From contig CANADC010000019.1 of NCBI GenBank assembly GCA_947347075.1, forward strand, positions 18,929 through 82,928: 64,000 bases of DNA, given 5' to 3'. Below the pieces are notes generated by a model, which had not been told where the DNA came from, ran no database searches, and worked only from the letters and a program-made list of their open reading frames with translations. The position numbers were made by a program, and so were the translations under genes. This DNA comes from an uncultured Clostridia bacterium. GTDB lineage: Bacteria > Bacillota > Clostridia > Lachnospirales > Lachnospiraceae. Shown here in pieces: positions 5,684 to 54,967 of this stretch (position 1 is the stretch's first letter; each line of letters begins with the position of its first letter).

Positions 5684-5720
5684 AGGGAGAGTGTTCGTTT
5701 GGGAAGGCTCTCCCTTTTTT
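5684..5720. terminator. Intrinsic terminator shared by convergent genes
   Basis: GGGAGAG-loop-CTCTCCC hairpin followed by TTTTTTG. It lies between convergent nadE and the minus-strand gene. Confidence 0.5.
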
Positions 5721-6299: not shown

Positions 6300-6666
6300 C
6301 TGGTGAGGGAAAAGTTTGGGTGTGAGAGTGAGGGGATTGGGGGGAGGATGTTGGAGTGAGGAAGGGGAGGAGGCTAGAGTGGGGAAGGGGAGGACGCTAG
6401 AGCGGGGAAGGGGAGGACGCTAGAGTGGGAAGCCATTTCTTCCCGCTGTTCCGCTCTACGGAAAGTAAGAATGTCTAATGCTTCTGGGGATAGGTGCATC
6501 CAGCCGGACGGACCGGGGTGCAATTCGCCCGTGCTGCGGGCTAAACACACCCCTTTTTTTGCCATTCGAGAATGGCAAAAAATCCTAGTGGATCGACAGA
6601 AGCATAAGACATTCTAACTTTCCTCCGAAGTCACAGCGGGAAGAAATGGCTTTCCCACTCTGGCTG
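6300..6666 (+). repeat. Structured repeat family A, copy A1, with a tandemly triplicated G-rich leader
   Basis: Conserved core CCGGACGGACCGGGGTGCAATTCGCCCGTGCAGCGGGCTAAACACACCCC-T6-GCCATTCGAGAATGGC-A6-TCCTAGTGGATCGACAG. It is flanked by two nested complementary stems. It is preceded by three tandem copies of GGGGAAGGGGAGGACGCTAGAG at 6330-6420. The element proper is about 6411-6666. Confidence 0.8.
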
Positions 6667-6725
6667 TCTTTTCCTGCCTGTAAGGTTAGAGTTGATTCAT
6701 TCATCCGTAGAGTTTTTTGTTTTTA

Positions 6726-6810: not shown

Positions 6811-6954
6811 GGTAAGAAATGCAGAGGGGAAAGAGAATGTCTTCTTTGTTACTTTGCTTTTCTTTTTTCAAAGATAGTGTAAAAGTTTATTTGGTTTTTT
6901 GGAATAGGATTATTTTCTTTGAAGTTTGGTATTAGGCAGGTAAAGGGTTGTTTA

Positions 6955-7115
6955 ACCTCATCAAGGAAGTCCCCCGCTTCTAAGCCGCCAAGGCGAAAGC
7001 GGTGGGTTGGGACTTCTTTGTTTCAGTGGGAGTGCAGACTCCCACTGAAAAGCTGCGATAGAAGCTATGAGGTTATGAGCAAGTAGCAAAGCGGATTGCG
7101 AATATCCGATTTGAC
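6955..7115 (+). repeat. Repeat family B, full-length copy
   Basis: AACCTCATCAAGGAAGTCCC / GGGACTTCTTTG foldback. Internal hairpins TTTCAGTGGGAGTGCAGACTCCCACTGAAA and AGCTGCGATAGAAGCT. Conserved 3' end AAGCGGATTGCGAATATCCGATTTGACT. Confidence 0.8.
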
Positions 7116-7481
7116 TGTTGGTTTGGGGTGATATGGAATGAATGATATATATTTTAAAATCAAAAATAAAGCTACATGGTTCGTTTCAGAAATATTTCTT
7201 GACATATAAATAGAATTATGGTAAGTTATTAAAAAAGTTTAGGAGAACATGGAAATGCAGAACTTATATTTTACAATGAATGATATGTACATGTATGACA
7301 GACGTACTTAGAAGTAATTGTGTTTTTGATTGGATGCACAGTTACGCAGGTAGGTCTGATATGTCTGTGCATATAAATTAGTAGGTGTAAGTTGTAATTA
7401 TATTTGCAATAGCCGATGGTTTTAGAAGTGCACTGGACATATTGTATGTTTAGTGTTTTTTTGTTTGGAAAGGAGTTTTTT

Positions 7482-8345: not shown

Positions 8346-9014
8346 CTACAGCCGCTTGAAGATAGCGGAGAGTTCCGCAATCCGCTTTTCTGCCGCTTCC
8401 AGCTCTTTCTTCTTGGCGGCGTTCCGGCGTTTGCTCCCGTCCTCGGTCTGCTCGGTCAACAGCTTCATAAACCGGGCTTCGTGCTTGGCGGCGTAGCTGG
8501 TGACTTTCCGTAGGTTCTCGGTCACTCCCTCGGTCAAGAGGTCGGTGCGGATAAAGTGCGCCGTACAGTCTGCCGTGCGCTTCTTGTAGCTGCCGCAGAT
8601 GTAGCAGTCCTGCCGCCGTTTGTCCGTCTGATACCTCTGCTGGTACATGACGCTGCCGCAGTCGGCACAAAAGAGTATGCCGGAGAACAAGCCCACTTCA
8701 TCATAACGGTTGGGGCGTTTGTGCTGCTTGCACAGCTCCTGCACACGCTCCCATGTATCCTTGTCGATTATCTGCTTGTGGTGGTTCTCAAAGATTATCT
8801 GCTTTTCGGCGGGGTTCTCCTTGCTCTGCTTTACCTTGTAGGACACTTTCTCGGTCTTGAAGTTCACAAGGCAGCCCGTGTATTCCCGGTTTTCAAGGAT
8901 ATGCGCCACGGTGTTTGTCGCCCACTTGCACTCATAGCCGGGGTGGTAGCGGCGTGTGCTTCCCGTCCGGTGGTATTCTAGCGTCCCCGGTGTGGGGGTC
9001 TGCTGTTCCGTCAA
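8346..9014 (-). pseudogene. Large serine recombinase, C-terminal portion only
   Basis: Recombinase-domain, Cys-rich zinc-ribbon (CADCGSV...CYICGSYKKRTADC) and coiled-coil tail are present. There is no N-terminal resolvase catalytic domain and no room for one upstream. The DNA is markedly more GC-rich than its surroundings. Confidence 0.65.
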
Positions 9015-9683: not shown

Positions 9684-9878
9684 TCACGCCGAGTAATGTA
9701 TTTTTAGTCCGGCTGTGCTTTCCGCTTCCAGCACTTTCATCATTTTGTCGGTGGTGGCGGTGGTGTCCTGTTTGAAATAGCCCGAAACCACAAGGACGGT
9801 GTTCCCTCTGTGTACTTCTGTCACGCAATCCGGGCGGCGGGCGGTAGTGGCGGTGCTTCTGTTGGGGGTGTCGGTCAT
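9684..9878 (-). CDS. Hypothetical small protein
   Basis: Its start overlaps the stop of the upstream minus-strand ORF by 4 nt (ATGA). It lies in GC-rich foreign DNA and has no recognisable motif. Confidence 0.3.
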   Translation of the reverse strand: MTDTPNRSTATTARRPDCVTEVHRGNTVLVVSGYFKQDTTATTDKMMKVLEAESTAGLKIHYSA

Positions 9879-10465
9879 AGGCTCTCCTTTCTGTTCAGCA
9901 GCGTTTTAAGGCGTTCCATTTTCGCCTGTGCTTTGGCTTTTCTGAAATTCTCCCCGGTAATGCAGACGGGGCAGCACATTTCTGTAAGGCGGTCATAAAT
10001 GCGGGCGTGGGCGGTGTCCTCCGGGTTCTGCAATTCTTTCAGCGTGAGGTTCGTTGTCACGATTAACGGCTTGCCGCTGCGGTATCGGCTGTCAACCACG
10101 TTATAGATTTGCTCTAAGCCGTATTTCGTGCCACGCTCCATGCTGAAATCATCAAGGATAAGCAAGGGGAAGCTGCAAAGGCGGGAGATATATTCGCTGC
10201 GGTCTTTGAAGCTGGCGGCAGCTCCCGCAATACAAGTTTGACCGCATATCGTAATGGGGTATTCTTTATAGGGTGCTTCAAAATATTCGTCTGTTGTGCC
10301 TAAAGGGTAAAACTTTTCTTCTGTGAGGTATTCAAGGGATATTTCCTTTTGCCGCCGTCTGCTCCTGTCACGCCATGCGTTAATAGCCGCAAAGCGTATA
10401 ACGGTCTTGCAATAGCTATTGAACGTATACATGATGTGTTTTCTGTATGCTTCTGTGCAGGGCAT
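9875..10465 (-). pseudogene. DnaC/IstB-like ATPase, degenerate (C-terminal half only)
   Basis: C-terminal half matches the DnaC/IstB family (LLILDDFSMERGT...IVTTNLTLKEL...RIYDRLTEM...ITGENFR). The N-terminal half has no Walker A GxxGxGKT motif and is unrelated. Probably a fused or decayed gene in the GC-rich mobile-element remnant. Confidence 0.5.
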
Positions 10466-12295: not shown

Positions 12296-12406
12296 CAATG
12301 CAAAAATTCTAAAATTATTTTTAATAAAAAAAGAAAGAAGGAAATTTAACAAAAAAAAATAAGAATATACTGGAGCAAAGAGAAAAAAGTAGATTGTGAG
12401 ACAATA

Positions 12407-12660
12407 CAGCCAGAGTACTTGAAAGGGAACTGTGACTTCGGAGGAAAGTTAGAAGCTCTTAGACTTCTGTCAATCCACTAGGATTTTTTGCCATTCTCGA
12501 ATGGCAAAAAAAGGGGTGTGTTTAGCCCGCTGTACGGGCGAATTGCACCCCGATCCGTCCGGTTGGATATGCCTAGATTCAGAAGTCTTAGAGCTTCTGC
12601 TTTTCGGAGAGCGGAACAGTTCCCTTTCAAGTACTCTGGCGTTATTTCCGGGGAATTTTT
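12407..12660 (-). repeat. Structured repeat family A, copy A2 (reverse orientation)
   Basis: Same conserved core as A1 in reverse complement. Its outer stem (CAGAGTACTTGAAAGGGAACTG / CAGTTCCCTTTCAAGTACTCTG) and inner stem (GAAGCTCTTAGACTTCTG / CAGAAGTCTTAGAGCTTC) differ from other copies but remain complementary. Confidence 0.8.
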
Positions 12661-19200: not shown

Positions 19201-19905
19201 TATCTGTATCCTTATCAGAAAGAAATGTCACTTTATGCAAAAACTTCCGTATCGGAGCAGAAACGTTTGAATCAAAGAGAAATGGAAGCAGAAGAAGATA
19301 CGGCATTATTAATCGAACAAAAAGAAGAGATTCTGCCGAAATTTATGCAGGGAAAATTAGAAGGTGTGGGAGGAGCAACACGAGGAACCGCCTATCATAT
19401 TTTTTTGGAAAATATGAATTTAGCAGAATTTGATGGAATGGAAGAGAACGAGATTTCAAAACGAATCGGGCAGTTAAAGCGGCAGTTAGTGGAGGAAAAG
19501 AAACTTTCAAAAGAAAATGCTAAGTTGATTTGGAATCAGAGAATTGTGGCGTTTTTAACTTCTCAGACGGCAAAGCGGATGCGGGAAGCGGAAAAGAGAG
19601 GGCAGATTTATCGGGAGACGCAGTTTGTAGTGGGGATTCCTGCTTGGAAGTTATATCGGGAGACAGAGAGTCAGGAGTTAATTTTACTGCAGGGGGTGAT
19701 TGATGTTTATTTTGAGGAGGAGGGGAAGTTGGTACTGTTGGATTATAAGACAGATGCAGTTTATGAAGGGCAGGAGGAAGTGCTGGTGATGCGGTATGAG
19801 AGGCAGTTTGAACTTTATAAAATGGCATTGGAGCAGATGACGGGGGAGGAAGTTGGGGAGATGATATTGTATTCTTTTGGATTGGGGAAAGAGATTCGAA
19901 TTTAA
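16234..19905 (+). CDS. addA: ATP-dependent helicase/nuclease subunit A
   Basis: 1223 aa. UvrD-like helicase (SAAAGSGKT Walker A, DEYQDSN) with C-terminal RecB-type nuclease. 10-nt overlap with addB. Confidence 0.9.
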   Translation: MAVNWTKEQEQVIYLRNRAILVSAAAGSGKTAVLVERIIQMITDRENPVDIDRLLIVTFTNAAAAEMRERITSAIERALEDAPEDAHLQRQQTLVHTAQIMTIDSFCLSVIRDHFDLLDFDPSFRIGDEGERKLLKSDVVAGLLEDYYSEADPEFFHFVESYSTGKNDSGLEDLILRLYEFAMSYPDPEEWLKGCLNEYPMEEQANEEALDQETMEQAYRKALEQTKSVQFLMEYLKKLITDCCSQLDLAKQICSQERGPYQYLPAIESDFYYLEKLVQCKSYQSFGKALKEVNFIRLSSKKDSSIDAEKKARVKEIRDRIKEEIRGIGKQFYFQPIDKMLENMANVSKTMAVMVRLTLDFHTRYQAKKRERNLMDFSDVEHLALNILTEQTKEGRVPSLIAKEYRDQFTEIMIDEYQDSNLVQEAILFSVSRYQEEIPNVFMVGDVKQSIYKFRLARPELFVEKYQTYTTEESNYQKIDLHKNFRSRPEVLQSVNDIFYQIMRKELGGVTYDNAAALYPGAAFPEGGSEAQERKTELLLINKSQEEDTTDLVTAEMTALVMEAKVIAGQIRRLTHPDTGLKVLDKKSGTYRTAQYRDIVVLLRTVAGWGETIVTICMEEGIPAHTQSQTGYFTALEVQTVLNLLRIIDNPRQDIPLAGVLHSPIGHFSSLELAKIRSAHLEGDLYEALLSPVGEEELDKKVKAFLEQLEYFRDQAACTPIHELIRLVLKVTGYGDYAASMPAGTKRRMNLDMLLEKAIAFEATSYRGVFHFIRYIEKLNQYEVDFGEASIVNEQDNTVRIMSIHKSKGLEFPIVIVAGMGKKINQMDAMQKAVIHPDLGVGLDFVNYERRTKAPVLIKRIIQKSIRLENLGEELRILYVALTRAKEKLILTGVTDKMTERYEKWRRETNGGAALSYASLAKAESYLDWIVPAITKESCEVTFYTPKGVAEGEILRQKENMDLSDYQKKLDFSQCFDPQLREEIEKRFSYLYPYQKEMSLYAKTSVSEQKRLNQREMEAEEDTALLIEQKEEILPKFMQGKLEGVGGATRGTAYHIFLENMNLAEFDGMEENEISKRIGQLKRQLVEEKKLSKENAKLIWNQRIVAFLTSQTAKRMREAEKRGQIYRETQFVVGIPAWKLYRETESQELILLQGVIDVYFEEEGKLVLLDYKTDAVYEGQEEVLVMRYERQFELYKMALEQMTGEEVGEMILYSFGLGKEIRI

Positions 19906-19935
19906 GCGAATGATTTGAATTTAAACGAATATATG

Positions 19936-20123
19936 TTGGGGGGGACGCTGACATCATTGGGTGATTTTCTGTTGGGGGGACGCTGACACCACTGGATGAT
20001 TCTCTGCTGGGGCCGTTTGCACTAAGGCTTCCTCGCAGCGGACACATAAGGCACGAAAAGACCGTGCCTAAGTGCCGGCGGGAAGCAATACCCCTGCAGA
20101 GATTCATCCAGCGGTGTCAGCTG
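19936..20123 (+). repeat. Structured repeat family C, copy C1, with duplicated G-rich leader
   Basis: Core GGGGCCGTTTGCACTAAGGCTTCCTCGCAGCGGACACATAAGGCACGAAAAGACCGTGCCTAAGTGCCGGCGGGAAGCAATACCCCTGCA. It is flanked by the complementary arms CTGACACCACTGGATGATTCTCTGC / GCAGAGATTCATCCAGCGGTGTCAG. The leader TTGGGGGGACGCTGACA occurs twice in tandem. Confidence 0.75.
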
Positions 20124-20190
20124 TGTATTCCAACCGGAACAGTCGCAGTATTTTGGTTGATTAAAACCGTTTTTGTGTGATTTTAGATAG

Positions 20191-20356
20191 TTTAACCTCA
20201 TCAAGGAAGTCCTCCGCTTTTAAGCCGTCAAGGCGAAAGCGGTGGGTGGGGATTTCCTTGTTTCAGTGAGAGTGCAGACTCCCACTGAAAAGCTGCGATA
20301 GCAGCTATGAGGTTAGGAGCAAGTAGCGAAGCGGATTGCGAATATCCAATTTGACT
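20191..20356 (+). repeat. Repeat family B, full-length copy
   Basis: Same architecture as 6955-7115. Confidence 0.8.
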
Positions 20357-20475
20357 CTATCAAGGAAGTCCCCCGCTTCTAAGCCGCCAAGGCGAAAGTG
20401 GTGAGTGGGGATTTCCTTGTTTCAGTGAGAGTGCAGACTCCCACTGAAAAACTGCGATAGCAGCATAGGATTACA
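20357..20475 (+). repeat. Repeat family B, tandem second copy (5' part)
   Basis: CTATCAAGGAAGTCCCCCGCTTCTAAGCCGCCAAGGCGAAAGTGG...CAGACTCCCACTGAAAAACTGCGATAGCAGCATAGG, directly abutting the previous copy. Confidence 0.7.
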
Positions 20476-20484
20476 AATTTCTTT

Positions 20485-20690
20485 TAACTCCAGAAGGAAT
20501 ATTCCAACAGTCGGAGTAGAGAATTTTTACGGGGCGTTGTTTTTAGAAGGAATGAACCAGCAGACCGAATAAAATATTTTTGTGAAGTATCATTTCCAGG
20601 GGGAATAAGCCAACAGGCGGAATAAAAACGTTTATGAGGTATTATTTTTAGGGGGAACGAAACAGCGGGTAGCATAGAGAGAATCTTTGC
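20485..20690. repeat. Degenerate tandem array of about 4 units of about 55 bp
   Basis: Units are AGAAGGAAT..CCAACAG.CGGA.TA.A...TTTT....G...T.ATTTTT. They are imperfect, of unequal length and have no spacers. Confidence 0.45.
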
Positions 20691-20797
20691 AGGGGTATTG
20701 CTTCCCGCCGGCACTTAGGCACGGTCTTTTCGTGCCTTATGTGTCCGCTGCGAGGAAGCCTTAGTGCAAACGGCCCCAGCAAAGATTCTCTCTATGC
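20674..20797 (-). repeat. Structured repeat family C, copy C2 (inverted relative to C1)
   Basis: Reverse complement of the family C core, flanked by the arms AGAGAGAATCTTTGC / GCAAAGATTCTCTCT. Confidence 0.75.
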
Positions 20798-20947
20798 TAC
20801 CTGCGTCCGGTTCTACAATACCAATATCTGGTTTATAATTGCTGAAGTGGTTTTCTTTTTTTCTGATAACTTTTCTTTAGAAATTGAATAAGCCTTGAAA
20901 ATTAGGGAAATACTCTTGGTAAAATTAGAGTATTGGAGGAGAGAGTA

Positions 20948-21169
20948 ATGCCGACTAAGAAAAAGAAAGAAATTGATTTGGAGAATTTAACACCAGAGGA
21001 TGAGATGAAATTAGAAATTGCAGAGGAAATTGGGGTGTTGGATAAAGTGCTGAAAGGGGGATGGGGAACGCTTTCTGCACGGGAAACCGGACGTATCGGC
21101 GGAATTCTTGGGACACGGAATCGAAAAAAGAAAGCACAAGAGGAAAAAGCATCTCAGGAGAATAGTTGA
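20948..21169 (+). CDS. Alpha/beta-type small acid-soluble spore protein
   Basis: 73 aa with start ATG 20948 (RBS GGAGGAG). KLEIAEEIGV...GGWGTLSARETGRIGGIL matches the alpha/beta SASP signature (EIA.E.GV...S..G..GG). Confidence 0.7.
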   Translation: MPTKKKKEIDLENLTPEDEMKLEIAEEIGVLDKVLKGGWGTLSARETGRIGGILGTRNRKKKAQEEKASQENS

Positions 21170-23553: not shown

Positions 23554-23916
23554 GGGGTTGTACTGGTTTCGACGGGGATTATGAAGTTGGAGAAGCCACC
23601 TGCGGGTCGGAACCGCATTAGTAAACCGAAAATTAAATATAAACGCAAACGAAGATTACGCGTTCGCTGCTTAATAGCAGCTGTCGCTCTTAGGTAGCTT
23701 ACTGCTTAAGAATCCGGCATCAAGGAGGTAAGGAACTTTGTATCCAAAGCTTTGAGGGTATAAAAGAAAAATGAAGCTACTAAAGCCGGAAACCTGTCCA
23801 TGGGTGTCCGATAGAGGGAACCGTATAGAAAAAGGCTATGCATAAAACAGGGACTGTGGTGGGAGATGCTTTGATGGAGGAGTCTTCGGACAGGGGTTCG
23901 ATTCCCCTCAGCTCCA
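23554..23916 (+). ncRNA. ssrA: tmRNA (SsrA)
   Basis: 5' GGGGTTGTACTGGTTTCGACGGGG matches the tmRNA consensus GGGG..G..CUGG.UUCGACGGG. Internal tag reading frame ends ...ANEDYAFAA followed by TAA. 3' end GGACAGGGGTTCGATTCCCCTCAGCTCCA forms a T-arm plus a 7-bp acceptor stem with the G3:U pair. CCA is not encoded. Confidence 0.85.
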
Positions 23917-23942
23917 TCGGTTAAACGTAACCGTGTTATGTT

Positions 23943-24016
23943 CGAGGTGTGGCTCAGTTTGGTAGAGCGCTACGTTCGGGACGTAGAAGTCGCGTGTTCG
24001 AATCACGTCACCTCGA
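23943..24016 (+). tRNA. tRNA-Pro (anticodon CGG)
   Basis: Cloverleaf folded by hand. Acceptor CGAGGTG/CACCTCG. D-arm GCTC-AGTTTGGTA-GAGC. Anticodon arm CTACG-TTCGGGA-CGTAG with G37. T-arm GCGTG-TTCGAAT-CACGT. 74 nt, no encoded CCA. Confidence 0.85.
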
Positions 24017-24180
24017 CTGAATTTAAGCAGATGCGGATCGCGTCTGCTAATTTTTTTTTTCGAAAGTGCTTGCCAAAATGGTTGTTTGTGTTATATAGTA
24101 TATTCGAAAAGCTATTTGTGCCGAAAGGAACGAAAAAGAGAAAAAAAGGAATTGGTATGCAATTAGAGGAGGAGTATAGA

Positions 24181-24960: not shown

Positions 24961-25128
24961 TTTTTAACCTATTAAGGAAGTCCCCTGCTTCTAAGCCGTG
25001 AAGGCGAAAGCGGTGGGTTGGGAGACTTCCTTGTGTCAGCTGGGGGAAAGTCCCATCTGACAAGCAGCGATAGCAGCATAGGATTATGAGGAAGGAGCAG
25101 ATTCCGAATTTCCTTATTTCCTTTGACT
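24961..25128 (+). repeat. Repeat family B, variant B2
   Basis: TTTTAACCTATTAAGGAAGTCCCC...GGGAGACTTCCTTG foldback with inner hairpins. 3' end GGAGCAGATTCCGAATTTCCTTATTTCCTTTGACT. Confidence 0.7.
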
Positions 25129-28063: not shown

Positions 28064-28324
28064 GGGGGAGGGGACGCTAGAGTTTGGAAGCAATTCTTTT
28101 TTGCTGTTCCGCTCTCCGAAAAGTAAGAACGGCTAATGCCTCTGAGTTTAGGTGCATCTGACCGGACGGATCGGCACGCAATTCGCCTCTGCAGGAGGCT
28201 AAACACGTGCCTTTTTTTGCCATTTGGAAATGGCAAAAAATCCTAGTGGATCGACAGAGGCATAAGACGTTCTAACTTTTCTCCGAAGTCACAGCAAAAA
28301 AGAATCGCTTCCCAACTCTGGCTG
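28064..28324 (+). repeat. Structured repeat family A, copy A3
   Basis: Begins 8 nt after the histidine-kinase stop codon. Outer stem AGAGTTTGGAAGCAATTCTTTTTTGCTG / CAGCAAAAAAGAATCGCTTCCCAACTCT and inner stem AGAACGGCTAATGCCTCTG / CAGAGGCATAAGACGTTCT. Confidence 0.8.
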
Positions 28325-28534
28325 TTTTTTCCTGTATTTTTATTGATAAAAAGAATAAAAGGCGAGATGGAGCTGCTTGGGAATGGGTATTGTTAGGTTG
28401 AAAAAGGAAATTTGCATTGTGAAAATGTAAAATCAGGTTGTGAAAATGCAGATTTCGTGATATATTAGGAGAAGAGAGGAAAGCAGGACGGGAATTTTTT
28501 GTAAATTTTATGAATAGAGTGAGAGGTAAGAAGG

Positions 28535-29257: not shown

Positions 29258-29711
29258 AGAAATAAAAATAAAGATAAGTAGATTTGTTTGGGGTCTGGTA
29301 ACGGTTTAACAACATTTATAATATTATGTACGAAATAATTACATCTAAAGGTATGTGAAAAACCTTGTTGATTTTCAGATATAGAGACTGAATATCAGCA
29401 AGGTTTTCTTTTTTCTCCATTTTATGAAATTCTTCTGTAAGTATATTACTGACTGCCTGTGAAGGGATTTTCGCCCAATGCCTTTTGCAAGGTTGTGTTT
29501 TGGTGCTTTCGTTTTGGTTTTATACTGTGCCATACGAATATTAAAGGTTTTTCCTATAGTCTAAGCTGAAATAATGCAACTTAATGGAAAAAGTATTGTA
29601 ACTTCAATATATATTTGTTATGATAAAAATAAAAAGGTGGTATTAGATTATGTCCTTCTCATATAAACCGCTATGGAAATTACTAATTGATTATGATATG
29701 TCGAAAAAGGA

Positions 29712-29831
29712 TTTAACCTCATTAAGGGAGTCCCCCGCTTCTAAGCCGTCAAGGCGAAAGCGGTGGGTTGGGACTTCCTTGATGAGGTTATGAGCAAGTA
29801 GCGAAGCGGATTGCGAATATCCGATTTGACT
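29712..29831 (+). repeat. Repeat family B, short form (no inner hairpins)
   Basis: TTTAACCTCATTAAGGGAGTCCCCCGCTTCTAAGCCGTCAAGGCGAAAGCGGTGGGTTGGGACTTCCTTGATGAGGTTATGAGCAAGTAGCGAAGCGGATTGCGAATATCCGATTTGACT. Confidence 0.8.
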
Positions 29832-29882
29832 TGTAAAGTTGACGATGTTATCCAACATTGCCAAGATAGGAGGAATATTTGA

Positions 29883-30881
29883 GTGGATAAAATAGATTTT
29901 GAAAATATTCATTTATATTGTGGGGATGCGATTAGATTATATAGTAAATGGAAAACTCCAGTTGTTATAATCTGTGATGGACCATATGGCGTAAATGGAT
30001 TTCCAGGAGATTTAGTTTCATATAAAGGACTTGCAGAGTGGTATGAGCCACATATAAAAAAATGGAGTTCTTTTGCTACACCGCTTACAACGTTATGGTT
30101 TTGGTGTACTGAGGTTGGTTGGGCAACGGTTCACCCTATGTTAGAAAAATATGGCTGGGATTATGTTTCTTGCTGCGTATGGGATAAAGGAATGGGACAT
30201 GCAGCGGGAAATACAAATACTAAAACGATTAGACATTTGCCTGTAGTTACAGAAGTGTGTGTTCAATATGTAAAAAAGCCTATCTTTATGGTAGGAGAGG
30301 TTCAAATGACAATGAAAGAATGGCTGCGCTATGAATGGGAACGTACAGGGCTTCCATTTTCAAAAACAAATGAAGCTTGTGGAGTGAAAGATGCCGCAAC
30401 AAGAAAATATTTTACAAAATGTCATTTATGGTATATGCCGCCTGCAGAAGCTTTTGAAAAGATTGCAGTATATGCAAATACATTTGGAGCAGATAATGGA
30501 AAACCATACTTTTCTTTAAATGGTAAAACCGTTATAACAAAAAAAGAGTGGGCACAGATGCGTTCAAAATTTTATTGTCCTATTGGTGTAACAAATGTAT
30601 GGCAGGTTCCACAGTTGAGAGGGCACGAACGCTTGAAAATTAACCAAAAGGCAATACATCTAAATCAGAAACCATTGGAATTGATTAAACGTACCATAGA
30701 AATGGTTTCTGATGTTGGTGATGTGGTTTGGGATCCATTTGCTGGATTATGTACAACAGCGGTTGCTTCAACTGAGTTGGAACGAATTTGTTTTTGTGCA
30801 GAAATCAATCATGATGTATATAATATAGCAGTAGAACGAGTAAAAAACAGTTTACAGGATGGTTTTCAATGCGTTCTCTAA
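29883..30881 (+). CDS. DNA methyltransferase, N4/N6-MTase family, beta class
   Basis: GTG start with RBS AGGAGG. Motif IV-like ICDGPYGV (a DPPY variant) lies near the N-terminus and motif I VWDPFAGLCTTAVAS (DPFxGSGTT) near the C-terminus. That order is typical of beta-class amino-MTases. AT-rich relative to flanking genes. Confidence 0.7.
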   Translation: MDKIDFENIHLYCGDAIRLYSKWKTPVVIICDGPYGVNGFPGDLVSYKGLAEWYEPHIKKWSSFATPLTTLWFWCTEVGWATVHPMLEKYGWDYVSCCVWDKGMGHAAGNTNTKTIRHLPVVTEVCVQYVKKPIFMVGEVQMTMKEWLRYEWERTGLPFSKTNEACGVKDAATRKYFTKCHLWYMPPAEAFEKIAVYANTFGADNGKPYFSLNGKTVITKKEWAQMRSKFYCPIGVTNVWQVPQLRGHERLKINQKAIHLNQKPLELIKRTIEMVSDVGDVVWDPFAGLCTTAVASTELERICFCAEINHDVYNIAVERVKNSLQDGFQCVL

Positions 30882-31733
30882 CTTTTTTTCATCTTTTGAG
30901 GATAAAATTTCACTCCATTGTTTGATTGTCATACTATGAAAAACAGTATTTAAAACATGGGTTTTAAATTGTTCAATTTCCTCATGTTCTATACGGTCGA
31001 TTTTGGCATAATTAGTATCAAGTCTATAAATAAATTGTCCGTATAGAGTTCTTAGAAGTCGTTGATATTCTGGGGCAGGGCTGTATCTTTGGGCATCTTT
31101 TCCCCATGTTTCAACAATGGAAAATGCAGCTTTAGCATCGCATTTATCTGATTGTAATTTATAACCATTCGTGTTGGTTTGCTGCAAATTAGTGGTACGT
31201 TCAGAGGTGTCTTCTGGTTCAAAAACAAGATAGTCAGGTGGTTTATGGTAGTGGGAATCTCTTGCTTCTGCAACACTCTTACCGCTAACTATAAGGACAT
31301 CAATAATTTGAGGCTTTCCCCAAATAACATTCTCTGGTAGCCATGCAATTAGTGCCATATCTATATTATCTTGTGCAAAAATCGTTACACTGTCCTTGAA
31401 GCGTGCTGTAATTTCTGTTGCAAAAGGAAACCATGCTTTAATTTCGATACCAGGGTTAGGTTGGATTATGCTACTCTTGAAAAGTGCATCAGGGAAACCA
31501 GGATCTTGCCTTATCCATTCACCTACGCCATTCCAGTCGTGTTTATTTAATAAGTCAATTGTAGAAAATTCAATCATATTTCCCAACAATGGAGAAAGTT
31601 TTGAGATAACTTTTGCGAGTTGTTTTGCGTATGCTAATGTTGCTGGACGTTTGATATCTAGTACATCAATCAAATGACTGTCTAAAGAAGATAATTCTTT
31701 TTTGGCGGCATCTAGAATATCTCTACTATTCAT
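30852..31733 (-). CDS. Hypothetical protein; candidate type II restriction endonuclease partner of the MTase
   Basis: 293 aa with RBS AAGGAG 8 nt before ATG. Convergent with the MTase and overlapping it by 30 nt at the 3' end. No motif confidently recognised (possible D...E.K near IDMALIAWLPENVIWGK). Confidence 0.4.
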   Translation of the reverse strand: MNSRDILDAAKKELSSLDSHLIDVLDIKRPATLAYAKQLAKVISKLSPLLGNMIEFSTIDLLNKHDWNGVGEWIRQDPGFPDALFKSSIIQPNPGIEIKAWFPFATEITARFKDSVTIFAQDNIDMALIAWLPENVIWGKPQIIDVLIVSGKSVAEARDSHYHKPPDYLVFEPEDTSERTTNLQQTNTNGYKLQSDKCDAKAAFSIVETWGKDAQRYSPAPEYQRLLRTLYGQFIYRLDTNYAKIDRIEHEEIEQFKTHVLNTVFHSMTIKQWSEILSSKDEKKLENALKTIL

Positions 31734-31962
31734 TAAGGTTACTCCTTTTTACAATTAATTCATTTTAGTATATCATGAAAACAGAGTTGAGAAAAGTAGT
31801 GACTTTTGAAAATATTGTAATATAAAATAATAATATATATTTAATCGTAAGAATGGATTGATAAATAGAAAATAATATGTTGCAAAGAACTTTTATTTTT
31901 TTAAAAATAGGAAATGGGAAATGACAAATGATATATTAGTAATTTTCAATATTTTAACCTCA

Positions 31963-32066
31963 TCAAGGAAGTCCCCCGCTTCTAAGCCGCCAAGGCGAAA
32001 GCGGTGGACTTCCTTGATGAGGTTATGAGCAAGTAGCAAAGCGGATTGCGAATATCCGATTTGACT
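31963..32066 (+). repeat. Repeat family B, short form
   Basis: TTTAACCTCATCAAGGAAGTCCCCCGCTTCTAAGCCGCCAAGGCGAAAGCGGTGGACTTCCTTGATGAGGTT...GCGGATTGCGAATATCCGATTTGACT. Direct orientation with the copy at 29712. Confidence 0.8.
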
Positions 32067-32224
32067 TGTTCTATATTTTGAGAAGACAAAATACAAATCT
32101 CTTGTTTTTTCTTAATGAAGTATTTAGAGTGGAAAAAATCTCCTTATTAAATTTTGTATATTTCGGATAGATTAAGAAGATACTATCTTGAAGAAAAATA
32201 AAAAATAAGGAGAAGGTGGGAGGA

Positions 32225-33643: not shown

Positions 33644-33747
33644 AATAGGTATAATATATTTTATACTAAGTTTTTCATTTATTGTAGAGTTTCGATTGTT
33701 TGGAGTGGTTTGGGATTGTTTGATTTAGAATTGTTTTGGGTAGTCCT

Positions 33748-33892
33748 GACGCTCGCCCTAAGGGATCTTTCTTTGCTGGGGCCGTTTGCACTAAGGCTTC
33801 CTCGCAGCGGACACATAAGGCACGAAAAGACCGTGCCTAAGTGCCGGCGGGAAGCAATACCCCTGCAAAGAAAGATCCCTTAGGGCGAGCTG
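33748..33892 (+). repeat. Structured repeat family C, copy C3
   Basis: Family C core flanked by perfectly complementary 26-bp arms GCTCGCCCTAAGGGATCTTTCTTTGC / GCAAAGAAAGATCCCTTAGGGCGAGC. Confidence 0.8.
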
Positions 33893-33905
33893 TTTTGTAT
33901 CTTAT

Positions 33906-34013
33906 TTTAACCTCATCAAGGAAGTGCAGACTTTAGACTTTCATTGAAAAGTTGCGATAGTGGCTATGAGGTTATGAGCGAGTAGTGAAGCGGATTGCGA
34001 ATTTCCTTTGATT
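33906..34013 (+). repeat. Repeat family B, divergent short variant
   Basis: TTTTAACCTCATCAAGGAAGTGCAGACTTTAGACTTTCATTGAAAAGTTGCGATAGTGGCTATGAGGTTATGAGCGAGTAGTGAAGCGGATTGCGAATTTCCTTTGATT. Confidence 0.65.
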
Positions 34014-34215
34014 TTTATGCTTTAGTGAAAAATTTCCTATGTTTTACATGGAATATTATATTTATAATAAAATATAGTTGAAAAATTTTAAGGCTGCTTT
34101 TATAATAGAGATGGTAAATAGATCGGAGAGGAAAAATATGGATTTCTCTCCGCATTTTTATATAAAATAGGCGATATATTTTTAATTTAAAGATTTAGGA
34201 GGTTAAATTAAATCC

Positions 34216-34482
34216 GTGTTTTTATTTTTTAAAGATCTGAAAAATAAAGCAAAGAAAAATGCTCAGTTAGAGACAATTTTACAAAAGATACAAATGAATA
34301 TGTCTAATAATTATAAAGACGCAGCACAAGAAAATTTAAAGGAATTTCAAAAGGTTTTTCAGGAATATCTTGATGCAAATAAACTGGATGAAAAACAGAA
34401 AGAATATTATCAAGAAAAATTGTCCAATTTATTAGTACAGATGAAACATTATACACATAAAGATCAGAAAACAACTTGGTAA
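34216..34482 (+). CDS. Hypothetical small helical protein inside a repeat-bounded unit
   Basis: 88 aa with GTG start. AGGAGG lies 13 nt upstream. Lys/Gln-rich and predicted helical. Possibly non-coding. Confidence 0.3.
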   Translation: MFLFFKDLKNKAKKNAQLETILQKIQMNMSNNYKDAAQENLKEFQKVFQEYLDANKLDEKQKEYYQEKLSNLLVQMKHYTHKDQKTTW

Positions 34483-34524
34483 AGCGATTCTATCAAACAT
34501 TCCGTTGAGATAGACAGATTGTAG

Positions 34525-34648
34525 CTGCTGGTGAATCCCTGCAGGGGTATTGCTTCCCGCCGGCACTTAGGCACGGTACTTTCGTGCCTTATGTGTCCGC
34601 TGCGAGGAAGCCTTAGTGCAAACGGCCCCAGCAGGGATTCACCAGCAG
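34525..34648 (-). repeat. Structured repeat family C, copy C4 (inverted relative to C3)
   Basis: Reverse-complement family C core flanked by the arms CTGCTGGTGAATCCCTGC / GCAGGGATTCACCAGCAG. Confidence 0.8.
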
Positions 34649-34842
34649 ATGCAATCGTCCAGATCGCCATAAACAATCATTCGGCTCACTATAAATAACT
34701 TTCTGGCTCACTATAAACAATCAGATTACTATTCGATCGATTCGAATTAAGGTCTTGTCAGATAATAGAAAATCTGCTACAATCGTATATATGTTCGATT
34801 AATCGAAGCAGGTTTGTAATACTATGGGTAAGGAGAACCACA

Positions 34843-44302: not shown

Positions 44303-44329
44303 TAGAAAAAAGTGAAGGTTGAGGGGAAT

Positions 44330-44480
44330 GGGAATGGTGTGGATACTGAGATGGGAAAGTTGGGGGGATGGTGTGTGGATATTGAGATGGGAAAGTTGGG
44401 GGATGGTGTGTGGATATTGAGATGGGAAAGCTGGGGGATGGTGTGTGGATATTAGGATAGAAAAGCTGGGGGGATGGTGT
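44330..44480 (+). repeat. Tandem direct repeats (about 4 units of about 37 bp) forming a G-rich leader of family A copy A4
   Basis: GGTGTGTGGATATTGAGATGGGAAAGTTGGGGGAT repeated with minor variants and ending in AGGGGACGCTGGAG. Confidence 0.7.
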
Positions 44481-44735
44481 AGGGGACGCTGGAGTTTGGA
44501 AGCCCTTTCTCTATGCTGTTCCGCTCTCCGAAAAGTAAGAAAGTCTAATGCCTCTGAATGAAAATATATCCAACCGGACGGACCGGGGTGCAATTCGCCC
44601 GTGCAGCGGGCTAAACACACCCCTTTTTTGCCATCAGAAGATGGCAAAAATCCTAGGAGATCGACAGAGGCATAAGACTTTCTAACTTTTCTCCGAAGTC
44701 ACTGCATAGAGAAAGGGCTTCCAAACTCCAGCTGG
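44481..44735 (+). repeat. Structured repeat family A, copy A4
   Basis: Conserved core. Inner stem AGAAAGTCTAATGCCTCTG / CAGAGGCATAAGACTTTCT. Outer stem GGAGTTTGGAAGCCCTTTCTCTATGC / GCATAGAGAAAGGGCTTCCAAACTCC. It follows the carboxypeptidase gene in the same orientation. Confidence 0.8.
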
Positions 44736-48330: not shown

Positions 48331-48413
48331 GCCGCAGTGGCGGAATGGCAGACGCACTAGACTCAAAATCTAGCGGGGGCGACCTCGTGCCGGTTCAAGT
48401 CCGGCCTGCGGCA
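48331..48413 (+). tRNA. tRNA-Leu (anticodon CAA)
   Basis: Type II cloverleaf folded by hand. Acceptor GCCGCAG/CTGCGGC. Anticodon arm CTAGA-CTCAAAA-TCTAG. Long variable arm CGGGGGCGACCTCGTG. T-arm GCCGG-TTCAAGT-CCGGC. 83 nt, no encoded CCA. Confidence 0.85.
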
Positions 48414-48469
48414 CTCTTGGCAGGGGCGTTCTCTGTAGACGAAATGTTTACAGGGAATTTTTTTATGTA

Positions 48470-48553: not shown

Positions 48554-48734
48554 ATAAAAATAGAAAGAACATAACAAATTTTATTCACCATTAGTTTGGG
48601 TAGTTATCAAAAGATAAGATAACTGCCTTTTATTTTATTAAGTCAAAGGAAATTCAGAATCCGCTCCACTACTTCCTTGATAGGTTAAAAAAACAAAAAA
48701 AGAGAAAAAAGAATACCTATATTGTGGAAAAAGA

Positions 48735-48982
48735 CAGCCAGAGTATGGCATTGCAGTACTGTGACTTCGGAGGAAAGTTAGAAGCTTTTAGACTTCTGTC
48801 GATTCATTAGGATTTTTTGCCATTCTTGAATGGCAAAAAAAGGGGTGTGTTTAGCCCGCAGCACGGGCGAATTGCACCCCGGTCCGTCCGGTTGGATGCA
48901 TCTAAATTCAGAAGTCTTAGAGCTTCTTACTTTCTGTAGAGCGAAACAGTACTGCAATGCCATACTCTGGCGTCCTCCCCCC
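48735..48982 (-). repeat. Structured repeat family A, copy A5 (reverse orientation)
   Basis: Reverse complement of the conserved core. The G-rich leader is visible as CGTCCTCCCCCC at the right end. Confidence 0.8.
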
Positions 48983-54624: not shown

Positions 54625-54878
54625 GGGAGGACGCTAGAGTTTGGAACCTATTTCTTGCAGCTGTTCCGCTCTTCGGAAAGAAGAAGCTCTAAGACTTCTG
54701 AGTCTGGGTGTATCCAACCGGACGGAACGGGGTGCAATTCGCCCGTGCAGCGGGCTAAACACACCCCTTTTTTGCCATTCGAGAATGGCAAAAATCCTAG
54801 TGGATCGACAGAAGTCTAAGAGCTTCTAACTTTCCTCCGAAGTCACAGCTGCAAGAAATAGGTTCCAAACTCTGGCTG
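54625..54878 (+). repeat. Structured repeat family A, copy A6
   Basis: Conserved core. Inner stem AGAAGCTCTAAGACTTCTG / CAGAAGTCTAAGAGCTTCT. It sits between the FtsA-like gene and the MVP-like gene. Confidence 0.8.
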
Positions 54879-54967
54879 TTTTTTCCGGCTGGTAGAGGAA
54901 TGTAGATGGCGGTGGTTTGGTTGCCGTAATTTTTTAGGTAAATTGATGAAGTTAGGAGGAAACTGAT

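Follow-up and report, generated by a model that had tools for sequence, protein, structure and literature searches.

What fills the unusually long gap between addA and the gene for a small acid-soluble spore protein (SASP), and how did it come to be there? Both genes lie in a 64,000-nt stretch of an uncultured Lachnospiraceae bacterium (GenBank assembly GCA_947347075.1, contig CANADC010000019.1, positions 18,929-82,928; hereafter the window), in which the addA stop at 19905 and the SASP start at 20948 leave 1042 nt between them. A first-pass annotation had described a block of repeats there, with inverted copies of a family C element around copies of a family B element, and had proposed that each C insertion created or captured its own pair of complementary arms. 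We found that C is a new family of bacterial interspersed palindromic repeats, with no relatives in Rfam and with unusual traits, and the comparisons below indicate that its arms are inherited. On balance, we favour the view that C and a second family, A, make up a superfamily of hairpin repeats that is restricted to this lineage, is non-autonomous and works in the manner of repetitive extragenic palindromic (REP) sequences and bacterial interspersed mosaic elements (BIMEs).

Family C, which is specific to one mouse-gut Lachnospiraceae species, is non-coding and interspersed; a copy measures about 165 nt, of which the hairpin spans 145 nt. The 21 complete copies aligned without gaps over 170 columns, and each consists of one long hairpin with a foot, a stem of fixed length and variable sequence, a near-invariant core and a tail. 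The foot, 5'-ACG...C(T)GT-3' with a bulged T, is invariant (columns A8-C9-G10 and C149-T150-G151-T152); T150 bulges, and the pairs C9:G151 and A8:T152 extend the helix. By strand the foot reads (G)GACG on one and ACAG on the other, with C|T at the 3' foot (CTGT). The stem is 26 bp long in all 21 copies, with column i paired to column 159-i (columns 10-35 with 124-149), and its sequence varies by copy while complementarity is kept. An invariant T:T opposition at columns 36/123 comes next, followed by GGGG/CCCC. The core is a structured 88 nt, 98.4% identical among copies, and the tail is about 20 nt long (nTATTCCAACCAGAAC). One 45-nt string of the core occurs four times in the window (at 20011, 20731, 33780 and 34583) and never in 100 shuffles.

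Several measures showed that the hairpin is a conserved structure. Across the 21 copies 97.8% of the cells of the structure were paired, a value that dropped to 38-46% in slid controls. Changes on both sides were found in 22 of the 30 pairs of the outer helix, covering 159 cells, and none of 500 shuffles reached these values; one-sided changes of the G:U type were absent. The core stems also covary in diverged copies (GGCACG/CGTGCC to GATGCT/AGCATC, and GCTTCC/GGAAGC to GCTTTC/GAAAGC). The two strands fold at -86.8 and -92.8 kcal/mol, with z-scores of -8.9 and -11.2, respectively, against shuffled sequence. Identity with a known RNA family was ruled out by an Rfam search, in which the whole window gave no match at gathering score and 19850-20950, searched to E 10, gave chance-level matches only (E >= 0.36). 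Read as RNA, the tail is UGUnUAUU, with U at five of eight positions. A terminator scan found none at the foot of any C hairpin, its sole flag near C being a weak hairpin inside the C1 tail at 20151.

The repeat block of the addA-SASP gap runs from 19934 to 20811 (19936-20797 in the first-pass annotation), and every part described there was found in the same order. C1 (19978-20142, + strand) has its foot ACG at 19980-19982, left arm at 19982-20007, core at 20008-20095, right arm at 20096-20121, CTGT at 20121-20124 and a tail up to 20142. Before it stands a duplicated leader (19934-19973, +), a decayed tandem copy of the C1 outer flank (GGGGGGACGC) and left arm with a 35-nt unit (Tandem Repeats Finder, 19934-20012, period 35, 2.2 copies, 86% matches), which was kept in all five strains compared. 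Two family B copies follow on the + strand. Copy 1 (20189-20359) is full, with a closing stem (AACCTCAT/ATGAGGTT), two internal hairpin modules and a 3' module; copy 2 (20359-20487) lacks the 3' module, and TTTAA bounds the B block at either side. The tandem array of about 55-bp units reported next is indeed present (20483-20644, +), but as three decayed units of 52-55 nt (Tandem Repeats Finder, period 52, 77% matches), each of which aligns to the C2 tail and adjoining arm and which differ among strains in number and sequence. C2 (20644-20811, -) closes the block, with, in its own orientation, left arm 20779-20804, core 20691-20778, right arm 20665-20690 and tail 20644-20661. Over 128 nt C1 and C2 are inverted copies of each other, with 91% complementarity, and in the repeat search each also had its own 31-nt inverted arms, 90-94% complementary. 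The copy-specific arms quoted earlier were right: those of C1 carry two mismatches, A:C and T:T, and the full 26-bp stem of C2 has one, A:C at column 12, outside the perfectly paired part that had been quoted. At 19893-19930, across the addA stop codon, 19 nt (GATTCGAATTTAAACGAAT) are repeated in tandem (two copies, 89% matches), a duplication that the closest relative, L056, does not have.

The same C(+)...B...C(-) architecture had been reported again at 33748-34648. A pair with a partial B copy is indeed there, at 33744-34663, but its interior holds an 88-amino-acid (aa) gene in place of an array. C3 (33744-33911, +) has its arms at 33751-33776 and 33865-33890 around a core at 33777-33864, and C4 (34496-34663, -) has its arms at 34631-34656 and 34517-34542 around a core at 34543-34630. 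Between them lie the B copy (33910-34009, +, without module 1) and the 88-aa gene (34216-34482, +), an ancestral resident between gerA and ruvA and not cargo. C3 directly follows gerA, as C1 directly follows addA. In a sister species (L046, 7427-7466) a canonical terminator stands right after gerA; it is gone from the window species (33644-33700), where C3 begins about 100 nt downstream. A hairpin with a T-run at 34128-34160, ahead of the start codon of the 88-aa open reading frame (ORF) and behind its predicted promoter, is conserved in a sister species (L049, about 9940-9975) and may be a leader attenuator. Most public contigs of this species end within C4, and the elements disrupt its short-read assemblies.

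Are the arms made at each insertion, as the first-pass annotation held, or do they travel with the element? We found that the arms of different copies are 49% identical, compared with 27% for random sequence of equal composition. Their conservation is position-specific, with G14 in 95% of copies and a core-proximal GA(A/T)TCT(C/T)TGC, and three pairs of copies at unrelated loci (L017p/L009p, L018p/L014p and L007p/L006m) have arms that are 84-89% identical. Because the stem is also of fixed length, these observations indicate that the arms are inherited with the element and then drift by paired substitutions, which is at odds with their creation or capture at each site. The homology of closely related copies begins at (C)GGACG and ends at ...CCAACCAGAAC, and they have neither spacer nor partner in common; the unit that spreads is the single element including its arms. 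A use of the arms as guides or spacers found no support, as no arm matched elsewhere in about 0.5 Mb of loci or in 50,697 phage records. Duplications of the outer flank and arm were also seen in L005, L006 and L010 and before A elements, and the interior of L007 holds nine 43-nt units of a tail array. The duplicated leader of C1 mirrors, on the opposite side of the element, the array of C2 tail and arm, and these duplications are probably products of slippage at a stable hairpin.

C copies are not placed at random with respect to one another. Our census comprised at least 27 copies in 18 loci of a metagenome-assembled genome (MAG) that is conspecific with the window or nearly so, plus the four in the window, and all are intergenic. 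All 12 pairs (L001, L003, L007, L008, L011, L012, L013, L016, L017 and L018 plus the two of the window) are arranged '+ then -', with tails inward and ACG ends outward, an outcome with a chance of (1/4)^12 if all orientations were equal and of (1/2)^12 among inverted arrangements only. The spacers range from 84 to 624 nt and the gene contexts are tandem, divergent and convergent, while the only definite singletons, L010 and L014, lie in narrow convergent gaps. Arm identity is 0.48 within pairs and 0.50 between pairs, which rules out local inverted duplication as the source of the pairs and indicates that each member of a pair arrived on its own. The interiors vary as well and hold nothing, tail arrays, B elements or whole genes. 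Material between paired copies, be it B, tail arrays or ancestral genes, is thus not part of the mobile unit, and the higher-order composite proposed in the first-pass annotation has to be given up: its B component is optional and strain-variable, its second instance brackets an ancestral gene, and the arms of partners are no closer to each other than to those of strangers. Three pairs enclose small genes. Besides the 88-aa ORF of the window, these are a gene for a Cys/Gly-rich peptide of at most 102 aa (some 86 aa if counted from the ATG behind a ribosome-binding site) with an apparent promoter and terminator of its own, inside the pair at L008 2029-2652, and a 150-aa ORF on the opposite strand, by eye like a GNAT acetyltransferase, inside the pair at L018 2168-2756.

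We then asked where else the elements occur and what the sites look like in relatives. Among 185,579 species representatives (one genome per species) the exact C core was found in one, the mouse-gut Lachnospiraceae MAG MGBC128194, which is the source of the 18 loci above, slightly diverged copies having been added with nhmmer. Elsewhere the core was found in one metagenome contig and in no viral contig. Neither C nor A matched a plasmid or phage; an origin of these two families from phages or plasmids was set aside, and of the three families B alone matches phage contigs. C1-C4 and the A copies are present in every strain of the species, the sequences being 98.5-99.9% identical over about 45 kb of the window. 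The strains differ in three respects only: B copy number, the units of the tandem arrays and a 2.85-kb restriction-modification cassette.

Relatives were reached through the 88-aa ORF and through SufC, AddA being unhelpful (its best other matches were 46% identical). Two sister species, in which the 88-aa ORF has 78% and 69% amino-acid identity, keep gerA-ORF-ruvA without C, so the gene predates the second C pair. In the closer sister the spacers around the ORF are 283 and 161 nt, compared with 572 and 360 nt in the window; in the more distant sister, ruvA is preceded by a spacer of 178 nt, and the gerA-ORF gap is longer and contains an Nramp gene fragment. Three relatives with SufC identities of 95%, 88% and 86% at the amino-acid level keep addA-SASP-sufC with addA-SASP spacers of 80, 60 and 166 nt. 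A, B and C are absent from about 65 kb of syntenic DNA of relatives (nhmmer, E up to 1-10), and the ancestral addA-SASP, gerA-ORF and ORF-ruvA spacers contain no arm-like palindrome, the best position-weight-matrix scores being 4.6-6.4 bits compared with 15.7-31 for true arms. One stretch of the L056 spacer was considered as a solo arm in the closest relative, but it scored only 4.6 bits, which is not significant. Since the relatives have short spacers and none of the three families, the whole addA-SASP block is a gain of the window species. C copies entered short ancestral spacers once the species had separated from its nearest relatives, and they are now fixed in it. Neither random orientation of C copies nor a match of their arms to host terminators in those spacers was seen. 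Three families at about one element per 3 kb, none of which occurs in the syntenic DNA of relatives with up to 95% SufC identity, show a recent massive colonisation of the intergenic space of this species.

The polymorphism among strains pointed to constraint on parts of the element. Segregating sites numbered 1 of 352 in the C core, 6 of 208 in the C arms and 5 of 120 in the C leader and tail, compared with 18 of 977 in ordinary intergenic DNA; the corresponding counts in family A were 3 of 744 for the interior and 5 of 272 for the arms. The C core and the A interior are therefore 5-6 times less polymorphic than ordinary intergenic DNA (Poisson P from the counts, about 0.01 and 6e-4, respectively), which reflects either purifying selection at each locus or gene conversion that homogenises the copies. 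Column 28/131, within GA(A/T)TC, is A:T, T:A or T:T among near-identical strains at three of four loci (window positions 20000/20103, 20786/20683 and 34638/34535). Of the 32 distinct stems, 11 have T:T at this position and none has A:A. This switching would fit conversion tracts that extend outward from the identical cores.

The mismatches that remain in the stems are lopsided. Scored on the '+' strand as originally read, the 32 distinct stems contain no G:T, at least 18 A:C or C:A, 11 T:T and at most two A:A. The A:C mismatches occur in copies of both chromosomal orientations, in those co-oriented with genes and in those anti-oriented alike, and selection on sense transcripts, which would flip with the orientation of the copy, was rejected on this ground. 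It follows from the spectrum that what counts for the C hairpin, or what is mutated or repaired, is one particular single strand and not duplex DNA.

Family A shares this design. Its + copies lie at 6417-6667, 28074-28325, 44486-44735, 54631-54879, 59271-59522 and 63880-64000, the last cut by the end of the window, and its - copies at 12406-12642 and 48734-48973. A and C have in common the foot ACGC...GCTGT and a T-rich/TTCC tail (GGGGGGACGC-stem...stem-GGCTGTTTTTTCC), and the arms of A are compensated too. The interior of A, about 180 nt, is unlike that of C, and in every + copy it contains a canonical terminator, GGGGTG...CACCCC followed by T7. A scan of the window for long hairpins closed by ACG...CTGT returned only A and C, and the two form one superfamily with a common foot and tail and different interiors. 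The A(+) copies stand 25-100 nt past the stop codon of a + gene. At four of them the scan found no other terminator in the gap, and the gene before the copy A_6400 has its own at 5714. Because the terminator of A lies in the middle of the element, most sense transcripts would stop before the 3' arm, and the complementarity of the A arms is unlikely to serve the sense RNA. For the folding strand of A itself, a count by RNAalifold is biased to G:U, and an unbiased self-alignment left too few informative mismatches. G-rich tandem arrays with 23- and 35-nt units were found beside A elements at 6341-6429, 44327-44472 and 59539-59641, the third just after A_59258. The 23-nt units consist of the A leader and the start of the A left arm, and the arrays at 44330-44480 and 59539-59641 differ in length by strain.

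To which known repeats are these elements closest? REP elements act as single-stranded DNA (ssDNA) of which one strand is specifically recognised, with a conserved tetranucleotide at the foot and C|T cleavage beside the hairpin; they have required irregularities in the stem, show compensatory changes and form inverted doublets (PMC8266576, PMC3116915). Like REP, BIME and REPIN elements, which are mobilised by RAYT transposases of the HUH type, C is extragenic, non-coding, palindromic and present in high copy. It would likewise be read as one folded strand, has a short conserved motif at the foot adjoining C|T, conserved irregularities in the stem and compensatory changes in the less conserved part, and it occurs in inverted doublets, with long vertical persistence and with tandem arrays. 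Unlike REP sequences of 20-40 nt, the C unit measures 145-165 nt and lacks the GTAG tetranucleotide. Whereas REPINs have conserved ends around a variable spacer, C is conserved at the apical core and the foot and variable between them, and its doublet, unlike that of REPINs, in which two like REPs fold into one hairpin, is not a replicative unit, the members being unrelated and 84-624 nt apart, even across a gene. No RAYT was found in the window, and the host is a Firmicute.

Other systems resemble C in part. Like miniature inverted-repeat transposable elements (MITEs), C is small, non-coding, dispersed in intergenic DNA, hairpin-forming and the product of a lineage-specific burst, and A and C resemble MITE families with a common transposase in having ends, but not interiors, in common. 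C differs from MITEs in lacking a family-wide terminal inverted repeat beyond ACG/CGT-like feet of 3-4 nt, as its arms differ by copy, and in having no related autonomous insertion sequence; we also saw no insertion polymorphism among strains at least 98.5% identical and no target-site duplication. Family B, unlike C, is MITE-like, with TTTAA on both sides and zero, one or two copies among strains. The bcr repeats of the Bacillus cereus group, described by Okstad, Kristoffersen and colleagues, are interspersed repeats of Firmicutes, 100-400 nt long, some with predicted conserved structures and compensatory changes and located downstream of genes; to our knowledge no obligate inverted pairing has been reported for them, and no relation to C in sequence is expected. 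In Neisseria, Correia elements and paired uptake sequences are dispersed hairpin repeats after genes that double as intrinsic terminators. A is like such terminator repeats in carrying a canonical terminator, whereas C has no convincing U-tract and a mismatch spectrum that disfavours selection on a sense RNA. With the attC sites of integrons C has in common a long imperfect hairpin, in C probably likewise read on one strand, conserved structure with variable stem sequence, and extrahelical bases. The C alignment contains no R''/L''-L'/R' boxes, the scanned ORFs of the window no integrase, the copies form no cassette array of one orientation, and the core sequence of C, unlike that of attC, is invariant.

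By analogy with REP and BIME elements and their HUH transposase, the C hairpin would act as a single strand, most likely as ssDNA, and a trans-acting protein would read the foot and core of the folded strand, while the stem need only pair. Several points weigh against this interpretation. We found no transposase or RAYT-like gene in the window by a Pfam search of the unassigned ORFs, and the ORFs flanking C at the 18 MAG loci, which were listed and not scanned with Pfam, look ordinary by their end sequences. There is no presence/absence polymorphism of C or A among the strains, and no target-site duplication or common direct repeat was seen at C borders, for which the relatives offered no empty site that aligned at base resolution. 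The strand that folds is ambiguous, in that the A:C excess favours the complement of '+', the T:T excess favours the opposite, and family A follows no common rule. The pairing rule is without a demonstrated mechanism. Finally, the low polymorphism of the cores is unlike that of relics of selfish elements unless gene conversion is at work, and it points to a role at the level of the host.

Such a role is the core of the main alternative, which we regard as possible but doubtful: C and A would be cis-acting RNA elements of the host (terminators, stabilisers of 3' ends or insulators), a '+ then -' pair would wall off a spacer or small gene, and mobility would explain arrival only. This agrees with the position of the A(+) copies just past stop codons and their internal T7 terminator, with C1 and C3 directly after addA and gerA, the latter without the terminator of sister L046, with cores of C and A constrained in situ, and with the U-rich tail past the C stem. 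An arm subfamily (L007m, L008p, L009p, L014p and L017p) has the form A-tract/stem/T-tract. The terminator of an M32 peptidase gene in a sister species (L049 19932-19985), with the stem GGAATCTTTGT/ACAAAGATTCC followed by T6, also resembles the core-proximal part of C arms (stretch 19932-19975), but at 20.3 bits about 0.1 such matches are expected by chance. However, on the sense strand the stems carry A:C but no G:U mismatches, even in copies co-oriented with genes; the tail is a poor U-tract, and the scan found no terminator at any C foot; the terminator of A would end the RNA ahead of its 3' arm; and no transcript is known that C(-) copies among tandem genes could stop. Rather unlikely, in our judgement, is a more radical reading, in which C, together with A, is a new class of boundary element, bound by a dedicated protein and put in place or kept only as inverted pairs around a spacer or gene, with cores under host-level selection, or a new ssDNA transposon that targets the vicinity of a resident copy in the opposite orientation. 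The traits that set C apart, namely a variable stem of fixed length between invariant parts, cores constrained in place, and inverted pairing of unrelated copies across older DNA, are at odds with the usual picture of REPs and MITEs and could reveal either a new mobilising enzyme or a host function of long hairpins, for instance in termination, insulation or protein binding.

The remaining alternatives are less probable still. We consider it improbable that arms arise at each insertion, whether hairpin-primed or template-switch synthesis makes them or the element enters the loop of a palindrome already in place, for instance a terminator. The near-perfect complementarity, the absence of G:T intermediates among 159 double changes, the flips of column 28/131 at three of four loci, which hint at fast templated or conversion events in the stem, and the weak resemblance to the sister-species terminator would fit it. 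The constant 26-bp length and the conservation and sharing of arms across unrelated loci contradict it, and the palindrome that it presumes is missing from the ancestral spacers, including the addA-SASP spacers of 80, 60 and 166 nt. What survives of the templated synthesis proposed in the first-pass annotation is that the near lack of wobble intermediates is compatible with some templated correction. It is very unlikely that C(+)-cargo-C(-) moves as a composite transposon or cassette with C as its long terminal inverted repeats; the inversion of all 12 pairs and the small genes inside three of them agree with this, but two sister species without C have the 88-aa gene at the same place, between gerA and ruvA, the arms of partners are unrelated, recently related copies have only the single element in common, and the interiors are polymorphic where both C copies are fixed. 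Equally unlikely is that folded C is the substrate of an attC- or dif-like site-specific recombinase, with inverted pairs flipping the segment between them. A strand-specific hairpin with conserved mismatches, the inverted arrangement and a truncated serine recombinase gene at 8346-9014 could be cited in its favour, yet at neither locus is the interior inverted in any of the 5-9 assemblies, no intact recombinase lies nearby, and the copies lack attC R/L boxes and are dispersed instead of standing in cassette arrays. The interpretation of C and A as REP/BIME-like hairpin repeats is thus the one that we retain.

Family B differs in character from both. It is a modular hairpin repeat whose main copies are all on the + strand (6948-7118, 20189-20487, 24961-25116, 29712-29831, 31951-32067, 33910-34009, 57520-57689 and 60104-60155), and comparison of the filled site with the empty site of strain L021 revealed TTTAA borders. 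Its copy number in the addA-SASP gap is zero, one or two by strain; copy 1 is absent from L021 and is replaced by one variant copy in L019, L020 and L022. B occurs in few C pairs only and is absent from the sister-species loci, and its 3' module is 78-91% identical to human-gut contigs labelled 'Bacteriophage sp.'. The 2.85-kb cassette (29274-32128) encodes an N6/N4 DNA methyltransferase (29883-30881) and a 293-aa ORF on the - strand. It holds two short B copies, one of which apparently interrupts a small ORF that looks helix-turn-helix-like by eye, and in strains L041 and L045 it is missing, with 156 nt including a terminator in its place.

Among the few - strand ORFs of the window, a truncated serine recombinase with Recombinase and Zn-ribbon domains only (8346-9014) and an IstB-like fragment (9875-10465) are remnants of mobile elements. 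Both were considered as a transposase of A or C and discarded, their positions being unrelated to these families. The window also contains ordinary features: a tmRNA (tag ANEDYAFAA) at 23554-23919, tRNA-Pro(CGG) at 23943-24017, tRNA-Leu(CAA) at 48331-48414 and a thiamine pyrophosphate (TPP) riboswitch at 59702-59812, upstream of thiamine genes.

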